Made by a program: the position numbers and the translations under genes. The notes beneath the pieces were generated by a model. That model was not told where the DNA came from. It searched no databases and was given only the letters and a program-made list of their open reading frames with translations. Below are positions 3,872-44,006 of a stretch of DNA of 64,000 bases, piece by piece. The DNA is from Lingula anatina (lineage: Eukaryota > Animalia > Brachiopoda): the NCBI GenBank assembly GCA_051362555.1, contig CM120640.1, positions 41,890,788 to 41,954,787 on the forward strand, given 5' to 3'. Position 1 is the stretch's first letter, and each line of letters opens with the position of its first letter.

Positions 3872-4121
3872 TAAAATTTTACTCTTCCGCAAACTTGGAT
3901 TACATCATTATCTAGATTTAGAAAGAATGTTAACAGCTATCAAAACATCTACTTAAAAAGCGATATGTATGTAAGCAAAAACTGATCCAGAGTGGAATAC
4001 ATGTACTGTATTTTAGATGATTATCTTATTCTGCTTATTACTTATTCTTATTTTTTCTGCCACCAGAGACACCCAGAGCACAGGGATAAAATATCCATCA
4101 AAACTGACCTACAGAGGTGAA

Positions 4122-10100: not shown

Positions 10101-10410
10101 GTTGGTTTTTATGTCTTTAAACATTGTGTAATTATATTATTTTATGCACTGTCATCTTTTTTCACATATTGGGATTTTCATTATGTGAATTTGAACTCTC
10201 ACATATGGTCCTGAAACTGTAATCTTATTGACCATGTTATTCTGTTGTACATTTTGTGAAATTTTATCTTTCACATACTGGAATTTTCATTGTGGGACTT
10301 ATAACTCCCAAGGACATGTAACATTTAACTTTTATTGATACTACCTGTTGTGCAATATTTGCAACTTGACTGTTCTTTTTGGCAAATAATTAATTTTCTT
10401 TCTAAAAAGT

Positions 10411-10450
<40 letters not shown>

Positions 10451-13400
10451 TTATAATCTCTTAAGATATTATTACAAAGTATAGCCATCTATGGATGTCA
10501 CATGGTCTGATGAAAAGTTCAGATATCAGAATAATAGCTATGACTGCCCTTTTTGTAGTAAAACAAAATATATATTTCTGCGAGTTGTTTACACTGTTTA
10601 AACTCAAGTTGGATGATTCATATCATGGTTATGCACCTAGACTGAATGGCAGCTTTAGTGGAATATTTTTGTAATTTTTTCTTTAATTTTTAATTTTTCA
10701 AACTGGCATTTTTAAGATGTTTTCACTTTTCAGCATATATGCAACACTGTAAACACATTTCAAGAAAAAAACGATAGGCCTGTTGTCATGAAACTCGCTG
10801 GGGTAATGGATCTCACTAAATTGAGGTCAAGTTCGAAAAGCGGCATGATCGGGCCACTATTTTAGTAGTTATGCTTTTTTCCCCACTTTTCAGCATATAT
10901 GCAACACTATAAACACAATATAAGGAAAACAGATAGGCCAATTGTCATTAAACTCACAGGAGTGATCAATGCTGCTAAAACACAGGTTGAGTTCGAAAAT
11001 CAGCATAATCGGGCCATTATTTTAGAAGTTATGCTGTTTTTTCACATTTCCTCACATTCAATTCTTAGGCATGTTAACAGTCTCATTAGTTAACTAATAA
11101 GATACGTAAAAGTGTTTGTTTGACATTTCCTGCACCTTTACAACATTGTTAGTTGATTTTGTAAAAATAATGGTAAACTTATTATCGTGTATTGTGTAAT
11201 AAAGTTTCAAAAGTGGAAATAAACTCATGTCATAGCAGTTTGTCAGATTCAATCATTCACTATGTTCAGAATCTCAGAATGGAAGAAATTGGCTATTTAA
11301 CACTGCTCTATTGATATTTTTCTTAGTTGATCATATAAAAATGGCAGTAAACTGTTAATTTTGTTTTATGTTTAAAAAAAAAACATTTCAGAACAGTGCT
11401 GTCTTGTTTACATTTTGGCATTTTCAATTTGTGACTTTGAAGTTCCATGGGCCTGAAGACCTTCCCATATCACATTTTCTGAATATCCATGATACTAATA
11501 TTTGATTATTAAAAAATTGATGGTCATTATGCTGTTAAACGTTATGTAATATTGCATCAAAAAAACTATTTTGGGCACTGCTCCCATGATGACCATTTAA
11601 GAAAAACCAGGTCGGTTCTCAAACTTGCAGGAAAGAAACATGCGACTAAAATACAATAGGCAATGCAGTCTGTTTGGTAATTCTTACTGCCAGTTAAACA
11701 GTTTTTTTTGTGAAAATTTAATTCTTCACAAGATATGCTTGAAGACCTGTGCTAGTCACATTTTCTGAAAATCCATAATACGTTTATTTTATTTTCAAAA
11801 GTTGACGGTCTTTATGCTGTTAACCATTATGTAATATTGCATCAGAATAGAAGAAAACACAATTTTGGGTGCTGCTGCCATGATGACCATTATGGGAAAA
11901 CCATGTTATTTATGATTGCCAAACTTTCAAAAAAGAAATACAGGGCTAAAATGCAGACCGAGTTGGAAAAGTAGTCTAATTGGCTTCTTTTTCTGGAAGT
12001 TATACATTTTCAAAGTGTGAACTTGAACTCCCATGGGCCTGAAGCCTTATGCTTGTTACACATTTTACTTACATTGGTATTACCTGTTGAGCATAATTAA
12101 AATTTAATGTTGAATTTGCAGTTCAACATAATGTACTTTTGCATCAGAATTGACAGTAGCCTATTTTGTGCATAGTTATTTCCTGTTTTTTGTCTGTACA
12201 TTTGACAGCTTTGCTGCCTTGTTTGTAGGTAATTTTCCAAATTTCCCCCCTTTTCAGATCTGAGTCTTTTTATTTTAAGAAATGCTTGATGTCTTGGAGA
12301 ACACCTTCATCCCTCAGGCAAATTTCAATCAAATATCCTGATAGCCTAATTGATATATCAACATTAATGCAATTTTCAAATTCAACTTGATTTCAACATT
12401 GATTCAACATTGAGGTATCAATGTTAATTCAACATTGATACCTCAAGGTTGATTTAACCTTGATGGTTCAACATTGATTCAACTTTCATAGTCAACGTCA
12501 TATCAACAAAGTTTCAACGTTGACTGTCAACATTGATTCAACATTGATACCTCAAGGTTGATTCAACCTTGATGGTTCAACGTTGAGTCAACTTTCATAG
12601 TCAACGTCATATCAACATAGTTTCAACGTTGACCGTCAACGTTGATTCAACATTGATACCTCAAAGTTGATTCAACCTTGATGGTTCAACGTTGAGTCAA
12701 CTTTCATAGTCAACGTCATATCAACATAATTTCAACGTTGACCGTCAACGTTGATTCAACATTGATACCTCAAGGTTGATTCAACCTTGATGGTTCAACG
12801 TTGAGTCAACTTTCATAGTCAACGTCATATCAACATAGTTTCAACGTTGACCGTCAACGTTGATTCAACATTGATACCTCAAGGTTGATTCAACCTTGAT
12901 GGTTCAACGTTGAGTCAACTTTCATAGTCAACGTCATATCAACATAGTTTCAACGTTGACCATCAATGTTGAGTCAACATTGATTCAATGTTGATTTGCC
13001 CGCTGGGTAGTAATAGGTAAATTGCTCATTGATAAATAGATTAAAATATACATATATAAAATATCCTTTGTACTGATAAAAGGACTGTGCAAGGAAGACA
13101 CTTGAAGAAATTTCTTTGGGCTTTCAACTATTTTTGTGCTCGGTGACGATGACTGCATCATGCTCTAATTTAAAAATGCCTCATAATTTCGTTAATAAGA
13201 CTGCGTAAACTCTGTAGTGCATTCCTTGCAATATTTGAGCAGGTGATAAAAATGCCATCATTCAAAATGATTGTAACGTGCTTTAGTTATTATATGGGCC
13301 GGCAGGCTTTCATAAAAAAAGCAGGACTTGAGAAAATATTGGCACCCTCCCCTTACACATTGTTAGGACTTAGTAAACAGCAATTTCGCAAAGTTCATCA

Positions 13401-14701
13401 GCGTGAAACCTAAAAACTATCAATAGATCCACAATGAAATTGATATGTGAAACTAATCGGTCCATAAAGGTGGCATAATATTACTTTATCCTCTCTTATA
13501 GGAAATTGATGCACAGACATATGCAGACTGGAAAGTTGATTTTGTGAAAAATGATGACTGCTACATCCATCCAGGTGAAAATATTGAAAAAAGTTACCAA
13601 AACATGTACGCTGCGATCAAAAACACGGGTCGTCAGATGATCCACAGTGTGAAAGGATCTGCTGAAAATTTGGAACTTGCTTCTGGGTTTTCGAATATGC
13701 GCCGCGTTAATTATGATATAAAAGACAACTGGATCAATATGATGTCCTTAGTTGACTGGGCTTTTAGCAAAAACTTGTACGATCATTCGGGACTCTGGCA
13801 CGACTTAGATATGCTGGAAGTTGGGAATGGAGGGATGACAACGGAAGAATATAAGGTCCACTTTTCCTTATGGAGCGCATTGAAGTCGCCTCTAATTCTT
13901 GGTAATGACCCGAAAATGATGAAAGGCAGCGTGAAAAATATTCTTACGAACCCAGAAGTTATAAACATAAACCAAGACCCACTGGGTAAACCCGTTTCAT
14001 TGGTGAGAGAAGAAAAACTCGGACACGCTGAACACTTAGCCGTTTCTGATTTAAGATGTACGAGGAATGATACAAACCAGCAGTGGAGTTATAGCAAGGA
14101 AAAAAGATGGCTCAAACATGTGAAACTTGACTTGTGTCTAACAGCGAATGTAACAAGTAAGTTGGTCACGGTAGAGAAGTGCGGCCGTTCAGATCTACAC
14201 CAGGCGTGGACAGTCGATGAAGAAAGAAACAAAATATATTTCAATATTGCAAGTGGAAAAACTTATTGTCTTGAACTTAAAAGTTGGGAAATGTATGGAC
14301 AAGCAACCGTGAAAAAGTGCCCCAAGAAACCGACATACAAAGACAAGATTTATTTTGAAAAATTTGCATCGAACACATCCTCTTATGTGATCTATAATTT
14401 AAAGACGTTTAACGACAAATGTTTGAAGGTCGGTGGAGTCGCTGACCTTCAAGTCTACAGTGGGCCACTTAGCAAAAACAGGGTAGTGGTTCTAATAGTA
14501 AACAGGGATGTCGTGGATCACGGATTTTCATTTAATCTTGAAGAGTACGTAAATACAGAACAAGATAAACATTATGTGGTCAAAGAGGTGTGGGAGAAAT
14601 TTGAATTCAAAGCGATCGGGGACACCAAACTTGTCACAGACTTTGAAATTTCATCCCATTCCTGTAAAATGTTTATTATTACCCCACAGTCCAAGGCATA
14701 A
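4122..14701 (+). CDS. GH27 alpha-galactosidase-like glycosidase with N-terminal hydrophobic anchor and inserted ricin-B (QxW) lectin domain, about 555 aa, 3 coding exons
   Basis: Exons 4122-4413, 4658-4833 and 13502-14701 (GT-AG; phases 1 and 0). GH27 motifs: [56 protein letters not shown] (nucleophile Asp), RRVNYDI (acid/base Asp), [25 protein letters not shown]. An in-frame ATG at 4017 is an alternative start. Confidence 0.9.
4905..5380. repeat. Left subterminal tandem array: 61-bp unit, about 8 copies, with alternating variants (122-bp dimer)
   Basis: gatagatcaaca recurs at 4918, 4979, 5040, 5101, 5162, 5223 and 5284; variants gggtctc/gatttaa and ggatttc/gaatcaa alternate. Confidence 0.9.
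5498..6130. mobile_element. Kolobok-like non-autonomous element with TTAA target site duplication, nested in the EnSpm-like element
   Basis: TTAA at 5494-97 and 6131-34. Imperfect TIRs agcaataataactctt / aagggttattatgact. Both ends resemble the element at 50553-50888. Internal 26-bp palindrome at 5961-5986. Confidence 0.75.
6614..6817. repeat. 68-bp tandem repeat, 3 copies
   Basis: ccacactatcaggagga starts at 6614, 6682 and 6750. Confidence 0.9.
7104..12224 (+). mobile_element. Helentron-associated non-autonomous element (HINE/DINE-1-like), about 5.1 kb, with 162-bp tandem array
   Basis: 5' T-run, perfect 14-bp hairpin tatgtacagacaca-ga-tgtgtctgtacata (7107-7136) and (GTC/GCC) microsatellite. 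162-bp repeats at about 7198, 7359, 7521, 7684, 7845 and 8008, then larger internal duplications. 3' subterminal inverted repeat tgtctgtacat (12191-12201), short hairpin cagc-ttt-gctg, and T-rich end. Confidence 0.8.
10412..10605 (-). mobile_element. Inverted fragment of the Kolobok-like family inside the HINE
   Basis: Reverse complement resembles 50580-50770 (tgtaaacaactc.cagaaatata, agatggcta..ctttgtaataat, followed by an A-run). Confidence 0.6.
12400..12990. repeat. Right subterminal tandem array: 109-bp unit, 5 near-identical copies
   Basis: cattgatacctc at 12433, 12542, 12651, 12760 and 12869. Confidence 0.92.
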
Positions 14702-16840: not shown

Positions 16841-19800
16841 TCAGGCAGAGCCTTGTGATGCAACAGGTACGTAGACACTGAGGGAAATCGGCGTCGGAGC
16901 TGGTTTATCAGTACTGCACTGAGAAACATCCGACATGTGACTGTCATTGCTGTTGCAGTCCATGGACGACTCGACAGGCGGTCTCGTGAGCTGTTGTGGC
17001 GTGTGTTTATTTGTAACGTGCCTCTTCATGTGCTTCGTCAAATGGTCGCTGCGCATGAATTTTCTATCACAAACGGGACAGGCGAATTTCTTCTCTCCGG
17101 TATGCGTTCTTTTGTGGCGGGAAAGTTCATCAGAACGAGCAAATCTCTTATCACACCCTTCCCACGTGCACACGAATGGTTTCTCACCTGAAAAGAGACA
17201 AAGTGGAGATTTAAGTTTCACAGCATGGCACGTCCCATCTCTGACATAAGGTACAACATACATTCGTGACTCACGTGAAGCAATGTCTAGTAATAAGACG
17301 GTGCTTCGGGGTCAGTTGACGACCCATACAATTTGTCTTGTGACCTTCATTATCAGCTCTCAACCACGCTGTAGTCACTAAGTACATTGTGTTATGTATT
17401 TGTTCTATATCATGGCTTGTCGGGTTGGGAGATTTTGCTGATAAAAGATGCTGAGGATATGAATTACAGTGCCCGTTCTCTGCAATGAATTTTGTTTCTA
17501 ATAATAAACATACATAAATTTACTGGGCATCTTTCCTTTGTCAAGCACAAGTGCACAACCTTTTTAAATTTATCAGTTTCATAAAAAAAATGTAAATTAT
17601 TAGCAGATCTAGATATTCTGGAACTGCCAATGTAAATGTAAAAAAAATTCACCAGGACTCAACTAACCTGTGTGCGTTCTAAGGTGTGCTTTCAAGTGTG
17701 AGCTTTTGAAGTAAGTCTTTCCACAGTTTTCATAATGGCAAACATGGCTCCTTCGTCTTTTCAGTTCTTCAATTTTCAGCATATCTGCAACCCCTTGTGC
17801 TGTGTTACAAGCCACTGGGGCAGGAGCAATGGGGCAGAGCTTATCTCCAGTCTTTTTCAGAACAGCTGATTTTTCATCCAATGTCTTTAAGTTACCACCA
17901 TTATTGTTACTGTTCATCAGAAAAACTTGGATAATCTGTGGTTTAGCAACAGAGAAGATTGGAACGGAAAAGGGTGGTGCCATAACAGAAACCGGGAATG
18001 CAGTAGAACTGGTCACTGGTAACCTATTTGGTGGCATATTTATCAGTGGATTATTGGGTGGAGTACAGAGTGCCTGAGTCAGTAAACTTTGGGATGGCAA
18101 AGATGGCATTGGGTTGTTGTCGGTGGTGGTCTGTTTACAGTGCCGCTGACCACCAGTTGCTGTATTATGATTAGCAGCATCTGATGTTGCCTGTGCCTTC
18201 AAACTCTTGGTAGAAACAATGACCGATACAGGCTGGCCACTGCTACAACATCTCTTTTCCGAGTCCAGTTCAAACGGAGAGTCAATGTCTGTTGGAGTAC
18301 GGGGAGGTGTCTCATATGGTAAAGTGGTGGTGACAATGGGTTTTCCCATCAAGAGCTGAAAATTACAATAAAAAATATTGTTGTGAATAATTATTCAAAG
18401 TGAGAAGGCAGATATTATACATTGGACAAAACTTCCTATCCCAACTCTAGCTGTAGCATCAAAAGAAATCTTTTTCCTACAATCTGATATTGAAATCTTG
18501 AAAAAATTTTAATTAGCATTTTACCTGTGCTAGTTTGGACTCCTTGAGAAGGGCACTGTTATCCTCTGTTGAATGTTTATGATTAGAAGCATCATCTTCA
18601 GAAACTGGGGTGTCTGGTCTGGCAGGTGAGCTACAGCCATGGCCAGATCTGGTCGAGGCCTTACTTATGGAAAGAAGAGTAGAGGCAGCCTCACATTCTA
18701 AGCAGTGTCCTTTCCCCTTCTTGCACGTACTCTTTGGTCGTTCATTCTAGAATAATAAGGAGCGAAATATTCCAGTTGATTATATACTTAGTTTTGTTAA
18801 TTTGTAAACTAAAACACTTGACCACAGATCTGACTGATTAAATAAATTCTGTTTATCTTTCTGTTTGCTTTGATGTTTTTCTTCTTATTTATTTATTATA
18901 ATGGGAAAATATTTTTTAATTAAAAATTTTAATAACATTTGTAAAAATAATGATTCTTAAATAACAGACATAAATATTTGTACTGATTGTATATTTTAAA
19001 TATTTTCTTTGTTGATGAAAACATTGGGTCACAACTTGCTTAAGCAACTTCCATAGCTTACCCACTTCAGTTTACTTTGACATCTATTTAGCAAAAAATT
19101 CACTTTTTTCCTTTCTTTCTATCTATCATTATTTTGTAATTATTATTTCATAATTATGAACTGGTGCAGGTTGAGGGAATGCATAAGGAAAGATAAAATA
19201 ATGCCAGGGATGAGATAATAAAAATACCTGGGTAGAAAAATCACCAGGCAGAAAGACTGCTTTTTGTTTAAAAAATGGGCTCTAAGATGTAACTACCTTG
19301 AAAAATGGTATGCACTCCTTAAAAGAACATCTATCTTGTTAAATTCTGTGATTTTAACGTCTGAGCAACCAACCCAAATCTTTCTTCCAGACTAGTCAGT
19401 AATATATGCGGAAATTATCAGTGTATTAGTCACATGCTAAATGTAGAGGGTGTGTCTGAACCTTGAAGGTCACTATATGCACATGTGAACACTCCGTGAG
19501 TAGGAAGGCAATGTTCGTTTCAAACCACTGGCATAATATTTTACAAATATAAATGTAAACCACCTCTGTATCAAAATATTTTCCATCTTATCGCAAGTGT
19601 TACACAAACACTACACCCGTTGTATTTCACTTTTGACTTATCATTGTGCGTTACAGACAAAAGCTGAGAAATGGTTATGAAATCGCGACCTTTGACCGCT
19701 AACCTACATAATGATAGAAATAGGTCAGATTTACTATAAGTCGGAAATGGGATCCTCTAAGGATCATATGGTACAGATTATCACGATTCTGGTACGTGAT

Positions 19801-24378: not shown

Positions 24379-25686
24379 AATCATGAAATATAAATCCTAA
24401 GGGCAGAAGAAGACACCAGAAATGCAGTCAATTATAGTGTAAAGCGTCACGTAGGCCTACATGTACTTGGTAAAGTATCTGTCATTAATACCTTGCATGC
24501 ATTGATACATTAAGTACGTAAGTAACAAGAATTTATTTTGTCGCATATTTGATGGTATAGTTACATGGGTGTGATTACTGCTGGTGTATAAAGAACTACT
24601 ATCATGTGTCAGTTATTAAATGTTATTTTTATTTAACGCTATACTTGTATTATATATTTGCGTCCGGCTCAAAAACAAAATTAATAAAACTAAGGAATAC
24701 ATTTTTACTTCAGTTGCCCTACACATAAATAAATTCTTCTGGCAGGAAGGGTATATAACGCTGGGGATGACTCTCAGGTATGGTGACTGTGTTTGTTGGG
24801 AGAGATCAAAAGAGCCTAATGACAATATATGAAGCCGATTTTTCAGCAATTTTGAATCGTCATTAGGTTTAATTTTCATTTTCTGCCAACTTTATATGGT
24901 TGGACATTGATTATTCAAATTTATTGCTTTGGAGATACCCCAGTACTTTGTTTTTAATTATGACTTCTCTTCCGCAACTTACAATTGATTTTATTTACGA
25001 CGAAAAGAATGAAAGAACTCCACGTTTTGTAACATCAACAAAAGGTTAGAATTTACATAATTCTACAATCGGGGACAGCCGAGGGTGGGCCTGACAGGAT
25101 TGGCAACTCTACTAGTTATATCCAGATATATCCAGTCTGAGTATGCTGATACCTTTTCACAACTGCATAGCAATTGCAGCACGGTGAAAATTAGTCCCAA
25201 TTTACTTTTTTTCAATAACACATCCCGAACATTAGTGGCCTACCGCATTCGACTACTGGGCCCAAGACTGCCATGAGAATAGCAACAGATTGAGAATATT
25301 ATTAGGGGCCTAATTAGTCTGATGATGCTGAGACCTCTTTACAGCGCCATACCCAGCACAGTGCAGTAGAAAATATTCCTATTAAATTTGAAATTAATAA
25401 AATATTCCGAACATTTGGCCTTTGAGCCTAAGAACAGCGTAAGAAAATAGCTACTATATCCAGTCTGAACAAGTTGTTCCCTCTTTACCATTCCATGGTT
25501 ATAGCAGCGCAGTAGAAAATAATCCCAATATATGGCTTGCAAAAATTATTCTTATCATCCTTTGAATTGAGATAAATTAAAACTTCTTTAAACTCAAATT
25601 ACATAAACCACTGGATACCACTCATATTTTGTCATTATATAATATTTTATCTGCGCGGAAGGACATGTTACACAAAGGACGTAGCC

Positions 25687-25723
25687 TATATAAATGACGT
25701 CCTCTGCTTGCACTATTTCATTC
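25687..25723 (+). promoter_or_regulatory. ODC core promoter: TATA box and initiator
   Basis: TATATAAA 25687-94, TGACGT immediately after, and Inr-like TCATTC with +1 A at about 25720. The AUG-free exon that follows ends at a strong donor AAG/gtaag at 25865. Confidence 0.7.
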
Positions 25724-25805
25724 AGATCAATAGTCTACGCAGAGGAAGGCTGACAGTGGTGCTGTGGAACGCGAAAATTTGAAGATTTCTTAGTTGTAAC
25801 TTTAA

Positions 25806-27594
25806 ATTTCCAAAATCACCTCGTTAAAGGAAAAGGGCACTGAAGGGTGCGAAGCTCCCGTAAAGGTAAGATGAGACGTTGTTTTACCAGAATTAGAAGA
25901 GATGTCGATCGAAATATCTGAACGTACGGTACATGCTGGCGGTGTGGATTTTGGCCTTTGTATCAGTAGTAAATGGTCTCATATGGTCAATCATTCTGCA
26001 TTCTTAGTATTTAACACAATCATGGATTAATTACTTTAGTATATATATAAATTTATAAAATCTGCTTTCGTAAGAAATTAAATTACTACAAATAAAGATG
26101 ACGTTATCTCGATGCAATCCACGTGACTCGGTCGATATTTAGTATGTTATGCTAATAATAAAACGCGCATTGCGTTTCTCTCACTTGCAAAATGAAGTTA
26201 ATTTCAATGATTGTAAGTCAGTGTCTGGTTTTGTGGACTTACATGCTGGTTGGGATGATTAAAAGGGTCTTGGAATTGTAAGGAAGATTTGAGGGAGATC
26301 AAATTCATCCTACCGTACTTCTTACAGTGTAAATTCGTATGGATGTACAAATTGTGTTTCGAAACTCATGAAAGGGGATTTTTCTTAGTCCACAGTCAAT
26401 GAAAATATTCTCTCAACTCCCCAAATATAATGATAAAATTTTAAGCCTCATGTAGGCGTTGCAGGTGTGGCAGTGGCAGCATATGTTGGTGTTTGTGTAA
26501 GCAGCTGTGGTTAAGCTCAGTAATCATTAAACTATTAATATTTTATGTTCTCCAAGTTGAAATCTGTGCTTAAAGGCTTTGTCTGTATAATGTCAAATAC
26601 ATATTTTGTTTTAGATTTCCCTGCTTGAAAAAAAAACATTATTTTGGTGCATTTGGGAACCGTTTCGAAAACTAATAAAAGAGGGGTATTGTTGTAAATG
26701 GCAAGCTGCTAATTTTGTAAACATGCAAGGTTTTTTTTTCTCCTTGAAGACTCTTTTTCATGAGAACATCTATTTACAGCATTTTTAGTCATGAACATGC
26801 TGTTGTGTAAGAAACAACATCAGTTTGTCGGCCATATTCCAGAGACACTAGGTTGAGCTTTGCTTGTCTTTTAATCTCAACATAAATACTCTAGATACAA
26901 CAAGTACTTAAACAGATATTGTTACATCTTTCCTTTTTTGATGTTTTTTAACTGATCAATAAATGTCATTGCAGTTACTTAAATTGATATTCTCGAAGAT
27001 TCCTTTTGTTTGTTGCCACTCAAAGTCTGTGACCTTTTTTCTAAACTTGTGTAAATAACCAACATTTAGCTTGAGTTTGAAGGGTTGTCACATAATTGTC
27101 AATTGATCCCTTGTTCTTGGTTTCTGGTATTAAATTTGTACTGCAAGTACATTTTGTTGGTTTCACCGATAATAGTCATCATCAAATGTTGATATAATAT
27201 CATCAAGTCCTGTGGCTTTAAATGCATAGCTTATAAACCTTCTGAGCATATGGTTCTATGCAAAGCAAGAATAAAACCATTTGTACTTTTCTTCTTGTTG
27301 GTCTAGTATTGTGATCACACTGCAATTTTCCCATATTTGCTTGTATAGCTTCCAGTTGTTCATTTTGTTCATGCCCAATTGCAACTTTCTGAATGGTTTT
27401 AATATACAAGTGTCATTTAAGACTAGAAGATTAACCATGCCGTTTTTCCACTCCAATTTGCTAATTTAAAACCATCTTTTCCTCTTTTTCAGGGCGGTTA
27501 CACATACCACTACTATAACCCCAACCCTTCGGGCTTCTGCCTCTTTAGGCTCAAGCTAAACTTCAACGCGGAACCCCCCTGGGATCCCAGCTGA
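25806..27594 (+). CDS. Non-AUG upstream conserved coding region (uCC) of the ODC/AZIN1 family, about 50 aa, split by an intron
   Basis: Exon starting at 27493 (acceptor ctttttcag) reads GGYTYHYYNPNPSGFCLFRLKLNFNAEPPWDPS* (TGA 27592-94). Spliced to exon 1 (donor 25865), the frame is open back to ATT 25806, which is preceded by in-frame TAA: ISKITSLKEKGTEGCEAPVK. The frame contains no AUG. The C-terminus matches the mammalian AZIN1 uCC ending as I recall it (FNAEPPWEPS*). The exact start codon is uncertain. Confidence 0.85.
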
Positions 27595-27969
27595 CATTTG
27601 CTAAAGGAGCAGGCATTTCAACTCGCAGTGTACTTGTTCTCATTTATATATATTTAACTAATTTCTATATCAGCTTTTGCTTTAAGAAAAAAATACTTAT
27701 TAGTCTGATGTAAAGGTTTTTATTTAATGACTGATTGATTCCAAAAAAGGTTTCTAATGCTATTGAAAATAGGGCTACCACCTCCCAACAATTCATAATG
27801 ATACATGTTGAAAATACTACTTAGTTTTTTCTTCTAAAAGGCAATAATATGTTAAAATGTTTATTTGGGGCTCATAGATACATTTTTTTTTAATTTTCAG
27901 GTTGTTGCGTATTTCTTAGTAACCAGTATTTAGTGAACAGTTTGAATCCACATTTTACATCTCATCAAG

Positions 27970-30757
27970 ATGAAAATCACATACCCAATCAAGAATTCTT
28001 CTCATTGCTTTGAGGTGATGAATGGTATGCCAGCAATAAAAAAATTGATTGCAAGCAAAATCCAAGAACAAGGGACAGAGGTGAGGTCATTAAATAGGCT
28101 AGTCTATTTGCTGATGATGTCATTAAATGGGTCCAGCATGCATGTGTATGGACCTTAGACTGTCACCAGTTTGTATTAGTCACATGTTGAATAAGTTTAC
28201 CTCATAATGGATATCAATTGTACTGACAAACTTGATTAAACAGATGTAGAAAATGTTTGTTCATGAGATTTCAAAAGACTGATAATTCTGGGTTGCTTTG
28301 ACTATCGGAATGCCTGCAGGATAAGGAGACTTTCGGGGGCATTTTATGGAACAGCATATGTAAGGTTCTGGCGATAATAAATGATGAGTAAATGGTTTAT
28401 ACAAAGATTCTGAAATGGAAAAAAGCAAAATAAGACATTGAATATGGATATAATTTGCCTTCTTACACTGTCGTACAGAATAGAATAGTTTCTTCATTGC
28501 ACCATTACACTTTGTGACACTCTCACTTTGAAATTAAATGTGCAAAAAACAAATATAGTAACACTTGAAGACTACTGTGCAACAATGAACCTAACAACCA
28601 AACCATTATCTTTTCCAGGATGCCTTTTTCATTGCTGATCTTGGTGCTGTGGTTGAGAAGCACCTTGAGTGGATATCTATGATGCCCCGCGTACAGCCAT
28701 TCTATGCCGTTAAATGTAACAATGACCCAGGAATTGTGCAGTTCTTAGCCTCCCTTGGCACTGGCTTTGACTGTGCGAGCAAGGCAGAAATTGAGCAAGT
28801 TCTATCACTTGGAGTCGATCCTTCTCGTATAATCTATGCGAACCCATGCAAGATAAAGTCCTACATCAGATTTGCCAAGGAAAAAAATGTCTCCCTGATG
28901 ACCTTTGATAATGAAAATGAACTGCAGAAAGTGAAGGCTTTCTATCCTGAGGCACACCTGGTCATCCGAATCTTACCACCTGCTTCTAAAGCTATTTGTA
29001 ACCTTGGGTGCAAATTTGGAGTGGAGCCGGAGAAAGCATTGCCCTTGCTGCAGAAGGCCAAAAACATGGGCCTCAATGTTGTTGGAGTTAGGTATGTACT
29101 ACCAGTTTATATTTTTTGAGTTTTTTCGTGAATTCTTGCTTTTTTGAGAACTGAACTTTGAAAAATGCATTCTATTTCCTCCAGATGCAGTTGAATAAAA
29201 TGAAGATTTACGAAGCACTACTTTATTCAGTATGGATTAATGTTCTGTAATTTGCTCGGTTTTTGAAACATGCAATTGTTTATGATACCTGTGATACATT
29301 TTATTATCGTATGAATGTCTTTTTGTAGCTATTGCCTGCATCTAAATTTCAATGACTGAAAGTTTTCATGGAGACGGTAACTGCAAAACTATGTTCTGTC
29401 ATGTCTGTTGAAGTTATCTGTAACTTGTAAGACTCTGGACAAAATGCATATTCAAGCTAGAATGTTGGCTTGAGTGGGTGGTGTTTATGTGTATTTTTTT
29501 TTTCTATTCTCAGTAGAGTGAATACTTTTCCTGATTGTCAAGTCTCATATATGCAATATTTTGCCTTTTCAGCTTTCATGTTGGCAGTGGTTGCCTAGAA
29601 GCAGAAGCCTTCAAGAAAGCCATTTCTGCAGCACGTAAAGTATTTGACCAGGCCAAGGTCATCGGCTACAACTTCAACCTCTTGGACATTGGTGGTGGTT
29701 TTCCAGGCTTCGACCAACCCGAGATCAACTTTGACGAGGTCACCCAGACAATTAACACCAGCCTGGACGAGCTTTTCCCAGATGATGATGACTTGAGAAT
29801 CATTGCTGAGCCTGGCCGTTACTATGCGACTTCTGCGTACACCCTTGCTGTCAATGTTATTGCCAAGAGAGAAGAAGTTGAGGCAGAACTTGTGGAAGAG
29901 GATAAGGCTAGGGTCATGTATTACATAAATGATGGCGTATATGGCTCCTTCAACTGTCTGCTATATGACCATGCAGAATTAACCCCTGATTACTTGAAGG
30001 TTAGATTTTTCTCCCATTGTTAAGAAAATCGGTGACTTAAAAGCTAGGATTTGTAAATTAGCTCCTTTCTCTCCAGGGTTGGATTCAGAGAAATTTTCTG
30101 ACAGTTTTCCAAATTATTTTTGTTGATACATCCTTCATTTTTGACCACCTGCCGACAGAAAAAAAGTAGATTATTGGCAATGTAAATTCCAAAATCTGCC
30201 AGCTTCTGGAAGACCCAGAAGACGACCTCATTCCGCGCCTGCTTTCTGTGTAGTTATTGTTTTTTTTTTACTGAGATGGCAATTTTCTTTTACTACTTTT
30301 TCTTAAATGGTTGAGCCTTGCTATTATATTTCTGTATGGTATCATGTTTTACAGAAAGATTGATTAGAGGATTCAATGTCCACATTTTTTTCTACATTAG
30401 GAAGTAGATTCGAAGGCCACCATCACCAGCAGCCTATGGGGGCCTACATGTGATGGCCTGGATTGCATCCTGAAGAACTGTGCAATGCCTTCACTGGAGG
30501 TAGGGGAATGGCTGTGCTTCAGGAACATGGGGGCATACACGCTGGTCGCAGGTTCAACTTTCAATGGCATGCCTCGCCCTAATGTGTACTACTACATCGA
30601 GGACACCAGGTGGCTACAGATGTTGGTGATGATGCCCTCCCAGGATTCAATCCAACTTGTGTTGAAAGACTTCGATGTTGCCAAGCCTGTCCCAGACCTT
30701 TCAGACCTTCAAGAGTTGGTTGTGCCAGACGTGAAGTGCTGTGCTCCCGAGTGTTAA
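27970..30757 (+). CDS. ODC1: Ornithine decarboxylase, about 455 aa, 4 coding exons
   Basis: Exons 27970-28080, 28619-29091, 29573-29999 and 30401-30757 (1368 nt, in frame). Motifs: PFYAVKCN (PLP lysine), GFDCAS, IIYANPCK, VGVSFHVGSGC, LLDIGGGFPG, IIAEPGRY, YYINDGVYGSFNC, WGPTCDGLD (catalytic Cys), MGAYT...STFNG. Confidence 0.95.
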
Positions 30758-32149
30758 CAGAATTCAATAAATTTATTGATTTGAGGAGTCCAAAATAGCA
30801 TGTGCATAACAGTATAAATATTATGACTGCAGTAATATCCAATGAGCCCTTTGAAAATATATCTGGATCAAAGTGGCATCGACCATAACTGTTAGGATCA
30901 TGTGTTCATTTTTACCAAACTGTTAAGATTTTAGATGAAATAAGTTTTTCATTGTCTGTTGTGTAAAATCATTATTTTTAACAAAGTCAAGCTTTTAGTT
31001 TAAAAGTGTCTGAAATTTTGTTATATCTGTACTACATTGGTGCATTTGTTAAAGAAATATTTTTGAGATTATTTGTATGGAATTAATATGGGGTGGTTTA
31101 AAGCAGTCCAATAAGATCATTTGGGGCCAAGGAAGTTGAGGAAGATGTTTTTAACATTCCCATCTTGACATAACCTCAGATTTTAGCATTTTGTTTGATC
31201 AGTCTGCAGATCAACAAAATTTGATTTTAGTGATTTTTCAAGAAGCACAAGCAGTGACTTGTAAATTCATTTTTAATTACCTTAACAGTTTGAGAAACAT
31301 TGGGCCATGAGTAGAACTAAGGATAACCTCAAAATATAATGAGAAGCATTTCATCTGGTAAATATTTTTTAATTAAACAAATTGAAAACCAGAATGGGCA
31401 GCCTGTGAGCAGAGACAGTTGTCACCAGAATGACAAGAGAAATCTTCGATAATTTGGTGAAGTGACCTGTATCTGTCACAGTGGATTTTAAGTGATTTGT
31501 TGCTCATTATGTGTATGACTGTTTGGTTACTAAGGTATTTATGCCTGCTCTGTAGATTATATTCAGAAATAAATGTTCTCACAAGGATTTTGCTGTCTGT
31601 CAGTTTCAAAGATAAAGGTGTTAACACAAAAATTCGCATATGTCATTGTAGAAATGCATCCCTTCCACAAGTTGAAGTCGAAACGTGACGATTTAAAGCA
31701 AAAGATGGTACAGAATGAGAGACAATTTGAATGTTAAGGGGTAATGTACTGTATGCAAGACTAATCTCCTCTTTTAAGATCTAGAATGTCAGTACCAGTA
31801 TTGTCTGTAGCAAACTGACACCTGGTTAAAACAATTAGAATTCAAATCCTAAAGTGCACTGACGTGAAATGGTATTATTGCTACATTGTTACAAGAAACA
31901 TTGCTTCTAAGTTGAGTCCTAGAACTTGCCCTCCTAAGTCGCATCTTGTAATTCCACAAACTTGTATTGACATTCTAAAAATGAATAATGTATTGGGTTT
32001 AATCTGTGACAGAAACTACATGTAACAAGATTTATTTCTGAAATATCACTAGAATACATCATTGATACAACAAGAAGAGATTCTCTAACAATTTAAAAGC
32101 TACAGTTTGTGAACCGATTCGCTTCTCCAATAATGTTAAGTGGAAAAAA

Positions 32150-32282
32150 TCCTGAATATCAGAACTTTACCAGGAGTTGACACTATTTAGGAAAATACTC
32201 TGAATATCAGAGCTTTACAGTAAGGCAACATTATTTTTAAAAAAATGCCCTGAATATCAGAGCTTTACAGTGAGGCAACATG
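32150..32282. repeat. About 50-bp tandem repeat, 3 copies
   Basis: ctgaatatcaga(g/a)ctttac recurs three times. Confidence 0.75.
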
Positions 32283-32545
32283 GTTTGAGATATTTCTGGG
32301 GTACTAATTTTGAGCACATTGGGAGGAAACATGCGTCTACCTAATAAAATGTGATTTGTTGAAATTTAATACTAGCTCCATAGCAGATATGTCTGACAGG
32401 TCTAAAGATATTACAACAAATTGTTAAAATATTCAGAACAGATAAAATAGTCATTTCCAAAACACTCTACTTTGAGCATTCTAACTTTTAAGTTAAAAAT
32501 CTTAACAAGTTAGCCATATGAGTACATTCAATCTAATGTTGGGGT

Positions 32546-33535: not shown

Positions 33536-34654
33536 TTACGGCCATCCAAAATTCACTCCAACCAAGCTGTAAAATTTCTTGTTGTGAGGTCTGAAGAAGG
33601 CACGTAGTTTTGCTAATACTGCTGGGTCAATGTTTGGGTGTTTGCGGCCTTTACTTTCTCCTAAACAAACATGCTCGTCCTCATCTCGAATACAGTAGAA
33701 CCCTTTTGTCTCATTGTACACAAACATATCTCTCTTGAACTGAGGATCAATGTCAAGAAATGCCTCTACTCTCTGGAGCTGTGTCACTGGATCCTCGGCA
33801 AATCTCTCACTGCTGATTAGAAGAAACTGATCCAAAGAGAAGTACTTTAACCACCTGGCCATGTGTACATGGTACTTAGACCTCCGCACTGGAGTGTAGC
33901 TTTCACGGATTCCACCGGTTTCTTTGTCGATGACAAGGTCTTCAAATCTGTGGTAAGATTTCCCTTTTTCCTCTTTGTTCGTGCGCACCTGAAGGTAGTC
34001 AGATATCATACGTTCTACGGGATCACGCAATATCAGCAAAAGTTTGATGCTACTGTTCATCTCATGCACTTTTCCAGCTACATGCTCTTCCACAAAGTAG
34101 GCAGGGGTTTTCTCAATAGTGATTTGATTTCTAAAAGAAAATGGCATACGTTTTCGGTACCAGTTCAAACCCAGCTTATATCTATCAGGCTCATCGAAAA
34201 AATGCATTTCCCTGCCTGCAGTTTGGATATCTGGATGAAGGTCCAAGAAATTCAACAGAGCCCTTGTTCCTCCTTTACGAACCCCAATGATAATACACTG
34301 GGGCAGACGACGTTGGGTGTGTCTTGAGTGAAAAGGATAGGAGTCAACTACAAAGTCATAGTCACCCTGAGTCTCATGTTGAGTATTGCTGGACATTTCA
34401 GTATAAGAGGACAAGTCACTTTTTAGGTGTGCCCCACTTGAGGTATATATTCCATAGATACAAAAACAGCAAACAATTCCAATCAGCAAAAATATTGCAA
34501 GAACTCTTTGTCTACATGAGCAGAACTTTGAAGAGGCTTTTACTGAGTCTATGCTATTGCCATCTGTCTGTATGGACTGAGACTGTGTGAGGACCTTGGT
34601 GCAACCACTCAGACCCTGACCTTTGCTCTTCTTTTTCTTCATCTTGGCAGCCAT
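33536..34654 (-). CDS. HS3ST: Heparan sulfate glucosamine 3-O-sulfotransferase (HS3ST1/5-like), 372 aa, single coding exon
   Basis: Type II transmembrane segment VLAIFLLIGIVCCFCIYGIY; 5'-PSB LPQCIIIGVRKGGTRALL; EMHFFD; EKTPAYF; 3'-PB RDPVERMISDY; KGFYC...CLGESKGRKHP; ends FGWP. Confidence 0.93.
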   Translation of the reverse strand: MAAKMKKKKSKGQGLSGCTKVLTQSQSIQTDGNSIDSVKASSKFCSCRQRVLAIFLLIGIVCCFCIYGIYTSSGAHLKSDLSSYTEMSSNTQHETQGDYDFVVDSYPFHSRHTQRRLPQCIIIGVRKGGTRALLNFLDLHPDIQTAGREMHFFDEPDRYKLGLNWYRKRMPFSFRNQITIEKTPAYFVEEHVAGKVHEMNSSIKLLLILRDPVERMISDYLQVRTNKEEKGKSYHRFEDLVIDKETGGIRESYTPVRRSKYHVHMARWLKYFSLDQFLLISSERFAEDPVTQLQRVEAFLDIDPQFKRDMFVYNETKGFYCIRDEDEHVCLGESKGRKHPNIDPAVLAKLRAFFRPHNKKFYSLVGVNFGWP

Positions 34655-35693
34655 GCATCAGCAATATCAGTCAAAATACCATGTGTCTCTGTACTTCTTG
34701 TAAACCAATTTGATAATCTTTCAATAACATTAAGGTCTCATGTGTGTAAACTGTTCAGAGATGTCCATATGTGACACATCACATCTTGCCAGTCTCATTT
34801 CCTCCCTGCAAGTCTTCTTTCTGAACAAAAATCTTGTTTGCCAACAAGATAATAAATCCAGAATTCCATTCCTGGAAAATGAGAATAAGAATGCTTCATT
34901 ACTACAGTTCATCATCAAATCAAGAACATCGCTGCTACTTTTAAATGTAAAGATTATCACAGTTCATGCAACCAGTACATAAGTTATATATGCAAATTGC
35001 TACCCCATCATCTCTGCAGCAATCTGAGAGTGTTTCATTGATTTCTGGGCCAAACTACAGAATGACCACACAGAATGCATTAATGAAATTAAATCAATGT
35101 AATATTATGCCTTCATGATGTAAAAGATTACTAAGAAGATTAGCCGAAACCATTAATATGTATATAAATTGCAAATATACTGGGTCTGACATATAAATAA
35201 TTCAAATTAACCAAAAACATCTCATGAAAGCCTAACATTTCATCAGATTTTATACAAGCCTGCATAGAATAAGAAAAAAAAATATATTATTTTGCAACAA
35301 TCTGGTTCATATTTGATATTTTGCAATCAAGACAATGTGGCAGTATTATCATGCAATACCAAACCTGAACATCTATAGTTAGTCATGTTATCATTATCTT
35401 ATAACAAAAGAATGCATGTGTCTAGCTGGCAATAATACTGCATTCATATGACCAACTGAAAAAGCAATCATTATAAGGCTTGATACTAGACAGTATACCA
35501 CATTTCAAAATGATATTTTTGAAGACCTGCCCTCACCTTTTAACAAATTCTAAATATTTTACAAAAATTATTTTGAGGAAACTATTTCAGAAAGAGAGAA
35601 AAATGATTAAAGCTGCTAATAAAAAAAGCTCCTTTACTGACTTAATTTCCAGCTTATTAAAAGCACTTCGTCCTCACCCTAATCATGAGTTGG

Positions 35694-41425: not shown

Positions 41426-42559
41426 CTATGGTTCTGGCCAATCAAACTTTCTTCCAATCATTTTGAACAGTTTCCTATTGTGTGGTACAAAGAAATTTTG
41501 TAACTTTTTCAATACACCATCATCAATGTCTGGGTGTTTTCTTCCTTTGGTTTCATTCAGGCATTTTTCTTCAGTTTTATTGCGCATACAATAGAATCCT
41601 TTTCTTCTATCAAAAAATAAGTTCTCCTCTGAAATCTGGTGGTCAAGACCGAGAAAAGTTTCTATTTTAGAAATCTCTGACACTGGGTCAGTTATCAACT
41701 TATCACCATCCACAATATGAATTTGGTTGAGATCAAAAACTTCTAGCCATCGTCTTAAATGTCGATGATAAATGCTGATTCGCACTGCTTTGTATTCAGT
41801 GTTTATTGAACCATCATCATTCATAACAATGTCCTCAAATTTGGGCCAATCTTCTGCTTTTCCTTTTGCTTTTTTATTATCTAGTATTTGGGCATAATCT
41901 GAGATCACTCTTGTAGTTGGGTCCCTGAATATGACGATGAGTTTGGCACTACTGTTCATGTGATAGATCCTTCCCGGTACTTCTGGAGTTATGAAATATG
42001 CTGGACTTTTCTCAACAGTCACTTGATTAGGAAAAGAATATGGCATCTTTTTACGGTACCATTCTAATCCCATGTCATAATTATCATCTTTGTCAAAGAA
42101 GTGAACTTCTTCCTGTGCCACTTGAATGTGTGAATGTAGATTGAGGAATACTAAAAGTGCTCTTGTGCCACATTTCCTCACACCAATGATAATGCACTGT
42201 GGAAGATGGCGCTTGGTGCCTTTGAAACGTATCCGCCCTTTACTTTCAAACAATAAATCCATGTTCTGAAGGGGAGCACGAGTTATGGACGCAGGCTGTG
42301 ATGGCTGTGCACATAAGGTGGCGTTCACAGGTTTGGAATAGACGAGACTGAAGGCGATGAAAATGCACACCAAAACAACCATTATGACACTTGCAGTGGC
42401 CATTCTGGTTTTCATTGTGCTGCAACAGAATTTACTCCAGAGGCCAAGGATCCCAGTGGCACTTGTGGAGTTGTTGGTGGAGGCTGCTGCTGGGACGTAG
42501 GGTTGATGGAGTGGGCTATACTGTATATCTGCCTTCACTGGCCTAGCACTGGCTGTCAT
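41426..42559 (-). CDS. HS3ST: Heparan sulfate glucosamine 3-O-sulfotransferase (HS3ST1/5-like), second paralog, 377 aa, single coding exon
   Basis: Transmembrane segment VIMVVLVCIFIAFSLVY; LPQCIIIGVRKCGTRALL; EVHFFD; EKSPAYF; RDPTTRVISDY; KGFYC...CLNETKGRKHP; FDWP. Confidence 0.93.
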   Translation of the reverse strand: MTASARPVKADIQYSPLHQPYVPAAASTNNSTSATGILGLWSKFCCSTMKTRMATASVIMVVLVCIFIAFSLVYSKPVNATLCAQPSQPASITRAPLQNMDLLFESKGRIRFKGTKRHLPQCIIIGVRKCGTRALLVFLNLHSHIQVAQEEVHFFDKDDNYDMGLEWYRKKMPYSFPNQVTVEKSPAYFITPEVPGRIYHMNSSAKLIVIFRDPTTRVISDYAQILDNKKAKGKAEDWPKFEDIVMNDDGSINTEYKAVRISIYHRHLRRWLEVFDLNQIHIVDGDKLITDPVSEISKIETFLGLDHQISEENLFFDRRKGFYCMRNKTEEKCLNETKGRKHPDIDDGVLKKLQNFFVPHNRKLFKMIGRKFDWPEP

Positions 42560-44006
42560 GCTGCTCTATGGTACCCTCACATCTAACACAATGACAAAGG
42601 GAACATATTTGACTAAGAAAGTTGGGTTCAATATACATTTAAAAACAGAGAAATACTTTTTATCAGCTAGCACTTCAAAGGCAAAATAGAACAAGGTGCT
42701 CAAATCGTTTGTAACAAAACTAAAGGAATTCAATTTATCTGAATTTGTAGGAATCTGACATAAATCCATTATGCAAAATTCATTTTTGTCTTCTGCTAGA
42801 CAGAATTTATGACATCACAAGATAGATCACCCTATCATCTGTTTGTGTAGCAATCTCTCTGCTAAGTTCGCCTTCTCAGGCTGCTTCTTGTGCTGTTATA
42901 AGACCACTGCTAAAGACCACCCCAGAAAGAAGACATTTAGTTTGCCCTCACTTGTTCTGTAATTTTAAGTTAAGCAGTAAGCAGAATGTTAAGGTGTGCA
43001 GGTTTAAATACGGTAACACACGACTTTCCCATCATTTAATTATAATTAAACCTTCTATTTCCTTAAGTTAGACAAACAAAATGTAGAATAGTGATATCAG
43101 TAGATGCAGAAACAATATTTTTAATCATGATTCTATCACACTGCCCTCATAACTCTCACATATATAAGCCCGCTAATTCATCACATCAACACAAGTTATT
43201 TTCTCATGATTATAATTCAAAGCATAAAACATTCTCCCAATCATTAAAATCAATGTCAAAAGCTGCCCTTAGGTGAAAATCTAAAATTATTGATGGTACT
43301 TTGAAATAATGCTATTCTATAAAGCTGTTTTGGGTCATTCCCTTAGCAAATGAGGTCAATCTAAAATTGCACCATAACCAATCTTAAATGCCATTTTCAA
43401 TTAAGTATTATATATTCCACTTGATAACTGCAGCAAATAAAACCAAAATTCAATGTAAGATTTATATTTTGCGGTAACCTAACAAAATGTCATTTGTTAG
43501 CTTCAATCTCTTAATAAGCGGGCCATGTGCAAAAACAACTACATCACTTTAGAGAGCATGAAGGTCGTCTAAAAAAATTCCTGAAACTTTTGTTTCCTCA
43601 TGAATTCCACAGCAGATTGTATAAATCAATTGAGAAAATAAACAATGAATGATAGGTTTTCAAGATTAATTTCTGAAAACAAAATTGCAGTGCTTCTGAT
43701 GTGACCACACCCTGGCCCATAATATTTTGCTGCTTTTTCATCTACAATATCTCAAACAAGCAAAGCAGATGAACTTTGACTTACACATTTAAACAAATAG
43801 CAGGTTTTAACAAAAACTAATGCAATCAATTTATTCTTTGAATGACAATATTCACCTTTTTTTTATTTGGATAACGCTAAACGAAGGAAAACACTACCCT
43901 GTCTTGCTTGTGTACCAACAAGTATATGGTAGCCAGAACACCACCAACTTCCAGCGATAAGAATAACCTACACCATCTGGATGGATACTGCCTTGAATTA
44001 AAAATG

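Follow-up and report, generated by a model that had tools for sequence, protein, structure and literature searches.

The window analysed here, a stretch of 64,000 nucleotides of Lingula anatina DNA, carries on its + strand an ODC gene with three leader-bearing exons and with coding exons that extend to position 30757. The main start is the AUG at 27970, which has A at -3 and opens coding exon 1 (27970-28080); this exon was placed using RNA and by an N-terminus matching those of proteins P0002, P0007 and P0011. Coding exons 2 (28619-29091), 3 (29573-29999) and 4 (30401-30757) were also placed using RNA, and exons 2 and 4 additionally by the PLP-binding lysine motif AVKC and by GPTCD, respectively, giving a protein of 455 residues. 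The initial annotation had stated that the enzyme retains its catalytic motifs, and AVKC, HVG, DIGGG, EPGR and GPTCD are all present. The protein is closer to human ODC (E 3e-52) than to AZIN1 (1e-35) and is predicted to be an active ODC rather than an antizyme inhibitor. In a tree of 77 of 120 proteins together with the window and 18 homologous loci (43 mostly fungal rows were left out), it groups with proteins labelled as coming from calanoid copepod transcriptomes (support 0.999). It ends in KCCAPEC (30730-30757), and we take the Cys-Ala pair near this end to recall the degron of mammalian ODC. Elsewhere in the window, two long uninterrupted heparan sulfate 3-O-sulfotransferase-like frames were observed at 33536-34657 and 41426-42565 (-). 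In a protein search the 41426-42565 frame had named matches of similar score in chelicerates, a nemertean and hemichordates; the 33536-34657 frame is presumed to be a heparan sulfate 3-O-sulfotransferase from likeness only. Exons at 4017-14701 (+) and 16841-18394 (-) presumably belong to an alpha-galactosidase and a KLF-type zinc-finger factor, respectively, which they resemble. Three degenerate 78-nt direct repeats (63-72% alike) lie at 25127-25532, just upstream of the ODC promoter.

The leader was mapped using 7 of the 9 RNA runs under the species label (X1, X3, X4, X5, X7, X8 and X9; X2 and X6 were left out), each of which was sampled in part (6-30% of the run), and the stranded libraries assign the leader RNA to the + strand. 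A TATA-like box (25688-25695) and an initiator-like TTCATTC (25717-25723) make up a candidate promoter element at 25688-25724, and read ends pile up at 25730-25735, a candidate start site downstream of both the box and the ATG at 25694. Leader exon 1 (25730-25865, from RNA depth and its joint) is followed by a phase-0 intron (25866-27492) that, according to the RNA joints, interrupts the upstream frame before a Gly codon, a position common to homologs. The part of exon 1 from 25806 to 25865 measures 60 nt, its donor is AAG/GTAAGA, and the next exon starts with GGC at 27493. The proposal that a leader exon at 27493 joins exon 1 in phase 0 is borne out by the splice 25865>27493 in all seven runs, with 159, 87, 241 and 198 reads in X1, X4, X7 and X8 in one mapping and 99, 122, 241 and 221 reads in X3, X5, X7 and X9 in a second. 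The second joint of the leader, 27629>27901, has 36-180 reads per run, and no leader joint other than these two is listed in the seven runs. As the initial annotation had predicted, the spliced leader contains no AUG before the ODC start at 27970 (0 ATG in 342 nt from 25730); an ATG-free leader was obtained in 40 of 2000 dinucleotide shuffles. Two peculiarities were seen in X1. At 27614, 20 nt past the first stop of the upstream frame, 36 first mates begin (depth 107), which is probably a library effect because the other six runs do not list such a pile. At 30203-30236, reads of both strands match a short piece of the last ODC intron and continue into other sequence, and these probably come from a repeat common to another transcript.

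Within this leader lies an AUG-less, intron-split uCC, and the earlier observation of it is confirmed here. The frame is closed upstream by TAA at 25803-25805, is open to the ATT at 25806-25808, which stands directly after that TAA and has T at -3, includes ATC 25815 with A at -3, and ends in PPWDPS-TGA at 27594; the two candidate starts and the ending are as described in the initial annotation. It comprises 50 codons from ATC 25815 or 53 from ATT 25806 and has no in-frame AUG. Counted from the ATC, codons 1-17 occupy 25815-25865, and codons 18-50 with the first stop occupy 27493-27594, where the sequence and homologs place PPW at 27574-27582 and CCC-AGC-TGA at 27586-27594. To compare the two candidate starts, a profile was made from 14 homolog ATT starts: in 12 mRNA-like loci the in-frame ATT that stands 46-49 codons upstream of the stop, and in L006 and L007 the ATT of the upstream exon. 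L005 and L009 lack such an ATT, L014 is truncated, and L015 and L016 are near-duplicates, so these five were not used. An A at -3 is shared by all 14 starts and by ATC 25815; the profile scores are +4.8 for ATC 25815 and -13.2 for ATT 25806; and the 50 residues counted from the ATC (Ile) match protein P0277 in a gapless alignment with 25 identities. On these three grounds AUC 25815, which stands at the homologous position, is by our own estimate quite probably the start, so that the AUU favoured earlier gives way to what had been the second choice. The near-cognate starts given for uCCs in PMC2811004 are AUU, UUG and ACG, and AUC is not mentioned in the available sections of that paper.

Relatives of the frame were sought in metagenome contigs with a 30-nt degenerate motif for NAEPPW(D/E)PS-stop. 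The motif gave 19 matches, 18 of them upstream of an ODC homolog, which is beyond chance, and the peptide is conserved in the ODC leaders of other species, where the initial annotation had advised to look for it, and its identity as an animal uCC is upheld; the 19th contig ends 120 nt past the motif. The same motif had 0 matches in 596 billion bases of prokaryote genomes, and 3 viral-contig matches to a shorter motif were not uCC-like. The phase-0 intron before Gly is common to the genomic loci, as seen at both ends in L006 and L007 and at the acceptor in L014. Given the motif loci before ODC homologs, the AZIN1-like ending and the common intron, the frame is, as judged from sequence, a member of the animal uCC family, and both PPW near its end and Pro-Ser-stop are intact. 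Among further searches, Pfam had no family for the uCC exon, P0277, P0278 or P0280, a protein atlas query with P0278 returned a best score of 0.77 and nothing usable, a protein search with P0278 matched only P0278 itself, and P0279, among 4 representative-search matches, was set aside as a repeat protein. The uCC mechanism was reportedly described in 2008 by Ivanov, Loughran and Atkins, with a further study by Ivanov et al. in 2018. In the literature, uCCs are described from ODC-homolog leaders of six animal phyla, mostly AUU-initiated and ending in adjacent prolines and Pro-Ser (PMC2811004), and the human AZIN1 uORF ends in FNAEPPWEPS (PMC9648851). Like the animal uCCs and that of AZIN1, the frame studied here has about 50 codons and no AUG, lies in the leader of an ODC homolog and ends in FNAEPPW-D/E-PS-stop (PMC2811004, PMC4458265, PMC9082881, PMC9648851), and it shares its intron position with L006, a locus whose uCC resembles that of human AZIN1. 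Compared with the AZIN1 uCC, however, its start is likely AUC rather than AUU, its main ORF encodes a catalytically intact ODC, its leader is without AUG uORFs, and a conserved in-frame tail follows its stop, which is absent from L006 (TGA TAG).

The uCC is of a known kind, and it is this tail that may be new. The earlier statement that the uCC ends at Pro-Ser-stop holds for the first stop, but it missed a conserved in-frame tail of 17 codons past the UGA. The conservation first became visible in the leader alignment and runs through 17 sense codons to Ile-Ser-UAG. In the window, alignment of the loci places the first part of the tail, 11 codons plus 2 nt containing LLKEQ, at 27595-27629; a phase-2 intron supported by RNA joints and genomic loci follows at 27630-27900; and the end of the tail, LLRIS with the second stop TAG (27917-27919), lies at 27901-27919; this stop has a TAA next to it and is separated from the ODC AUG by 50 nt. 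In the genomic loci L007 and L014 the tail is likewise divided between two exons by an intron at the same position and in the same phase. Across the loci the tail starts with (Y/H)LLKEQ and ends with LL(R/C)IS-stop, the second stop being TAG in 7 sequences and TAA in 3. It is intact in 10 of the 19 loci (L001, L002, L003, L005, L007, L011, L013, L014, L015 and L019), and the sole indel is an in-frame insertion of 2 codons (6 nt) in L003. One independent gene call, P0278, runs from PPWDPS into a tail-like stretch, probably since its caller read TGA as Trp.

The coding character of the tail was measured with the window and 9 loci, L015 being dropped as a duplicate of L011 and the L003 insertion left out. 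Mean pairwise difference at codon positions 1, 2 and 3 was 0.24, 0.09 and 0.48 in the tail (permutation p 5e-5, 10 sequences), about like the 0.16, 0.07 and 0.48 of the last 14 uCC codons; past the second stop it was 0.71, 0.68 and 0.71 (p 0.36). The pN/pS of the tail was 0.21 in frame 0, 0.48 in frame +1 and 2.24 in frame +2, and the antisense frame with common third positions gave 0.27, as expected. The coding signal was present separately in tail codons 1-9, 10-17 and 12-17, the last group giving p 0.013 alone on the next exon, and it was also obtained with 6 sequences, one per lineage (p 1e-4). These p-values are conditional because the sequences were picked since their tail looked intact, and 7 of the 10 fall in one ODC clade (support 0.96), with the window, L003 and L013 outside it and deep branches weakly supported; selecting sequences for similarity would not on its own produce codon periodicity. 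Conservation of the tail exceeds that of the ODC protein, with 11-15 of 17 residues identical to the window while ODC identity is 37-59%. These results demonstrate purifying selection on the tail, in frame with the uCC and reaching as far as a conserved second stop. A fusion of the tail to ODC was considered and rejected, as the second stop is conserved and, in mRNA-like loci, precedes the AUG by 9-89 nt with no fixed frame. An amphipathic helix was not detected in the tail beyond shuffles (p 0.45).

The runs under the species label also differ among themselves. In X7-X9, about 4% or more of the coding sites across 25733-30900 depart from the genome sequence, mostly silently, and these runs possibly represent a cryptic lineage. 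In X7 and X8, at least 19 fixed sites, 15 of them silent, were found to differ from the genome in a 471-nt ODC exon; in X7 and X9, 7 fixed sites were found in about 130 nt of non-coding leader, and 0 differences in the 207 nt of uCC plus tail. This zero divergence indicates strong constraint and not a frame, since synonymous sites and some of the non-coding flank are also unchanged. X4 carries a 1-nt loss at 27603 in a minority of reads (6 of 135, beginning at 2 places).

The first stop is a single UGA in each of the 10 intact sequences, and UAG or tandem stops are found in 7 of the 9 loci whose tail is not intact; no p-value is attached to this relation because the losses represent few independent events, and a Fisher test of UGA versus intact tail was set aside as its groups are not independent. 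The codon before the stop is the Ser codon AGC in 19 of 19 loci, and positions +4 to +6 are TAT in 9 of 9 intact loci. The +4 base is C in the window and U in 9 loci, so that a pyrimidine follows the UGA throughout. Among the loci without an intact tail, L004, L008, L010 and L016 combine UAG with a 2-nt deletion and group with named gastropod ODCs, and L012, L017 and L018 form one clade in which the middle of the tail has decayed, with internal stops in L012 and L017. In this clade the tail end TGT ATT TCT (C-I-S) and the next bases are kept in the uCC frame. At L009 (345-395), PPWEPS is followed by TGA TAG TAA, yet about 11 tail-like codons with silent changes come after; the usual ATT start is absent there. 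The L013 locus (268-1485) encodes an ODC homolog with ALRC in place of AVKC and without HVG, DxGGG or EPG, which is probably antizyme-inhibitor-like because the PLP lysine motif and the three others are missing; its uCC and tail are intact. In the RNA data of the window, no splice form removing the stop is listed in 7 runs, and no variant or edit of the stop codon at 8% or more was seen in 4 runs.

In AZIN1, eIF5A-dependent synthesis at PPW becomes slow at high polyamine, ribosomes line up, initiation at non-AUG codons increases and repression of the main ORF follows (PMC4458265, PMC9082881), and the same effect operates at the Pro-Ser-stop of yeast HOL1 (PMC11550727). The role of polyamines rests on mouse and human AZIN1 work (PMC2811004, PMC4458265, PMC9082881), AZIN1 being the only uCC for which direct tests are described in the accessible text of PMC2811004. 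By analogy, the uCC of the window likely serves as feedback by polyamines on an active ODC, as the initial annotation had suggested. If the AZIN1 scheme applies, most scanning subunits would pass the AUC and reach ODC at low polyamine, and at high polyamine elongation at PPW and termination at Pro-Ser-stop would slow, so that ribosomes queue, AUC initiation goes up and ODC output goes down. Termination at UGA_C is weak, and with spermidine the OPRL1 UGA was read through more than 20-fold more often (PMC9841425). Slow termination at AGC-UGA-(C/U)AU would admit a near-cognate tRNA, more at high polyamine, and give a 68-residue product. Our main reading, to which we assign a probability of roughly 0.55, is thus that the leader encodes an AUC-started, polyamine-stalled uCC with a conserved 17-codon tail that would be made by UGA readthrough. 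Readthrough would be the simplest entry into the tail since the tail starts right after the stop and in frame, with UGA and a fixed context, and the conservation makes translation past the UGA likely. Against readthrough, 9 of the 19 loci lack an intact tail, the three stops of L009 with their tail-like codons are unexplained unless the loss is recent, and the context is not the mammalian UGA_CUAG, the relatives having UGA_U. For the function of the tail we prefer a second termination roadblock at Ile-Ser-stop, because this end is as in MAGDIS: ribosomes escaping the first stop would still block ODC. This is the weakest step and the analogy is a weak one of two residues; the tail may alternatively act as a degron or as a trans-acting peptide.

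Since the coding signature is blind to how ribosomes enter the frame, the tail might instead be translated through separate initiation, or termination and reinitiation, at the UUG or CUG 1-2 codons past the stop, with the uCC acting as an AZIN1-like sensor. Every one of the 10 intact sequences does have a UUG or CUG at codon +2 or +3. However, the codon shifts between these positions and between UUG and CUG, its -3 base is mostly a pyrimidine as against A in 14 of 14 uCC starts, purine-ending Leu codons are equally common at tail codon 13 (10 of 10), and the tail keeps strictly to the uCC frame and goes together with UGA, which makes such an entry unlikely. Only slightly less likely than this is a plain AZIN1-type sensor ending at UGA in which the downstream conservation reflects an RNA element, such as a hairpin over the stop at the mRNA entry channel of the PPW-paused ribosome. 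Minimum-energy folding gives a similar hairpin for most intact loci, the strongest cases being L002 (z -2.71) and L007 (z -1.89), 75.8% of cells pair compared with 24-44% in slid controls, and nucleotide similarity persists in the frameshifted gastropod-like loci and L009. On the other hand, with the structure taken from L002 there was no covariation beyond shuffles (146/500, 60/500), the alignment fold did not recover the hairpin, and the window's own sequence does not fold so (z +1.32). The hairpin does not extend over the second exon of the tail, and it would explain neither the periodicity of the codons there nor the in-frame indel nor the TAG/TAA second stop.

The same UGA could be passed in other ways, or the conserved frame could serve another purpose. 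We consider it improbable that uCC and tail are conserved yet not polyamine-responsive here, as a constitutive brake or a trans-acting micropeptide: the direct tests are confined to AZIN1 (PMC2811004, as far as its available text goes) and the tail is conserved beyond what a mere spacer needs, but PPW and Pro-Ser-stop, the two tested polyamine-sensing motifs, are intact before a polyamine-making enzyme (PMC9082881, PMC11550727). An antizyme-like +1 frameshift at Ser-UGA-U/C, giving Asp-Ile-Cys/Tyr/Phe and then a stop, would agree with the D-I-[C/Y/F]-stop found in frame +1 of all 10 intact sequences, with the window's one change there, GAT to GAC, being silent in +1, and with UGA_U as the antizyme context (PMC9841425). 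Such a frameshift is very improbable, as it would add just 3 codons with no long +1 frame, the +1 peptide follows from Tyr-Leu-Leu-Lys in frame 0, the tail pN/pS is lower in frame 0 than in +1, and codons 5-18 would be left unexplained. The most improbable proposal is that selenocysteine is inserted at the UGA, or that editing turns it into UGG, with the 68-residue form as the main product; every intact copy does have UGA, perhaps within a stem, but no Rfam match was found in window 25600-32500 or in 9 loci, a home-made SECIS scan without a positive control, in which some 3' UTRs were incomplete, gave no match, and no A>G change at the stop reached 8% or more in 4 runs.

Readthrough of the UGA, the reading we prefer, has parallels in other systems. 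The AMD1 mRNA likewise belongs to the polyamine pathway and combines readthrough of the first stop into a conserved extension with a second in-frame stop, at which a stall was shown (PMC13025110). In AMD1, however, the main protein is extended by 127 residues into the 3' UTR, whereas in the window a uORF that precedes the main start is extended by 17 codons, with a stall that is only proposed. The AMD1 MAGDIS uORF and the yeast HOL1 Pro-Ser-stop uORF share a polyamine-dependent termination pause (PMC13025110, PMC11550727), and the stops in the window are Pro-Ser-stop and then Ile-Ser-stop; those uORFs, however, are short, AUG-started and have one stop, and the likeness of Ile-Ser-stop comprises two residues and serves as a lead only. 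A weak UGA is also shared with OPRL1 (UGA_CUAG) and with the +1 frameshift of OAZ1, where recoding rises with spermidine (PMC9841425). Compared with the UGA_CUAG class, CUAG is absent, the window having AGC-UGA-CAU(U) and its relatives UAU, and compared with OAZ1/antizyme there is no long +1 frame, which stops after 3 codons. In the literature searched, which did not extend to the original 2008/2018 uCC papers and the 2018 JBC review, no readthrough or conserved coding past a uCC stop was reported, the tail motifs had 0 occurrences, and no case of programmed readthrough inside a uORF was found. Readthrough is unmentioned in the available sections of PMC2811004 and PMC4458265, and those of PMC5009743, on antizyme inhibitor, contain nothing further on uCC or tail. 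There is by our own estimate a modest chance that the tail was noted earlier in the original uCC papers, whose authors had invertebrate alignments.

In conclusion, a uCC alone would be one more case of the mechanism described in 2008, and the tail changes that. More tentatively, and rather doubtfully at present, the ancestral animal ODC leader may have been a two-stop polyamine sensor, with polyamine-stimulated readthrough of the UGA and a renewed stall at Ile-Ser-stop, from which AZIN1 would be derived by losing a layer. If this is true, programmed readthrough would be used inside a uORF as a regulatory sensor. The ODC leader can also be a short natural system for asking whether slow termination at Pro-Ser-stop, which involves eIF5A and polyamine, becomes readthrough. 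If the tail is made by readthrough, the ODC leader would join antizyme (frameshift), AMD1 (stall and readthrough) and AZIN1 (queue) in ribosomal polyamine sensing, and for the many animals in which the tail is preserved the AZIN1-based model may not be complete.
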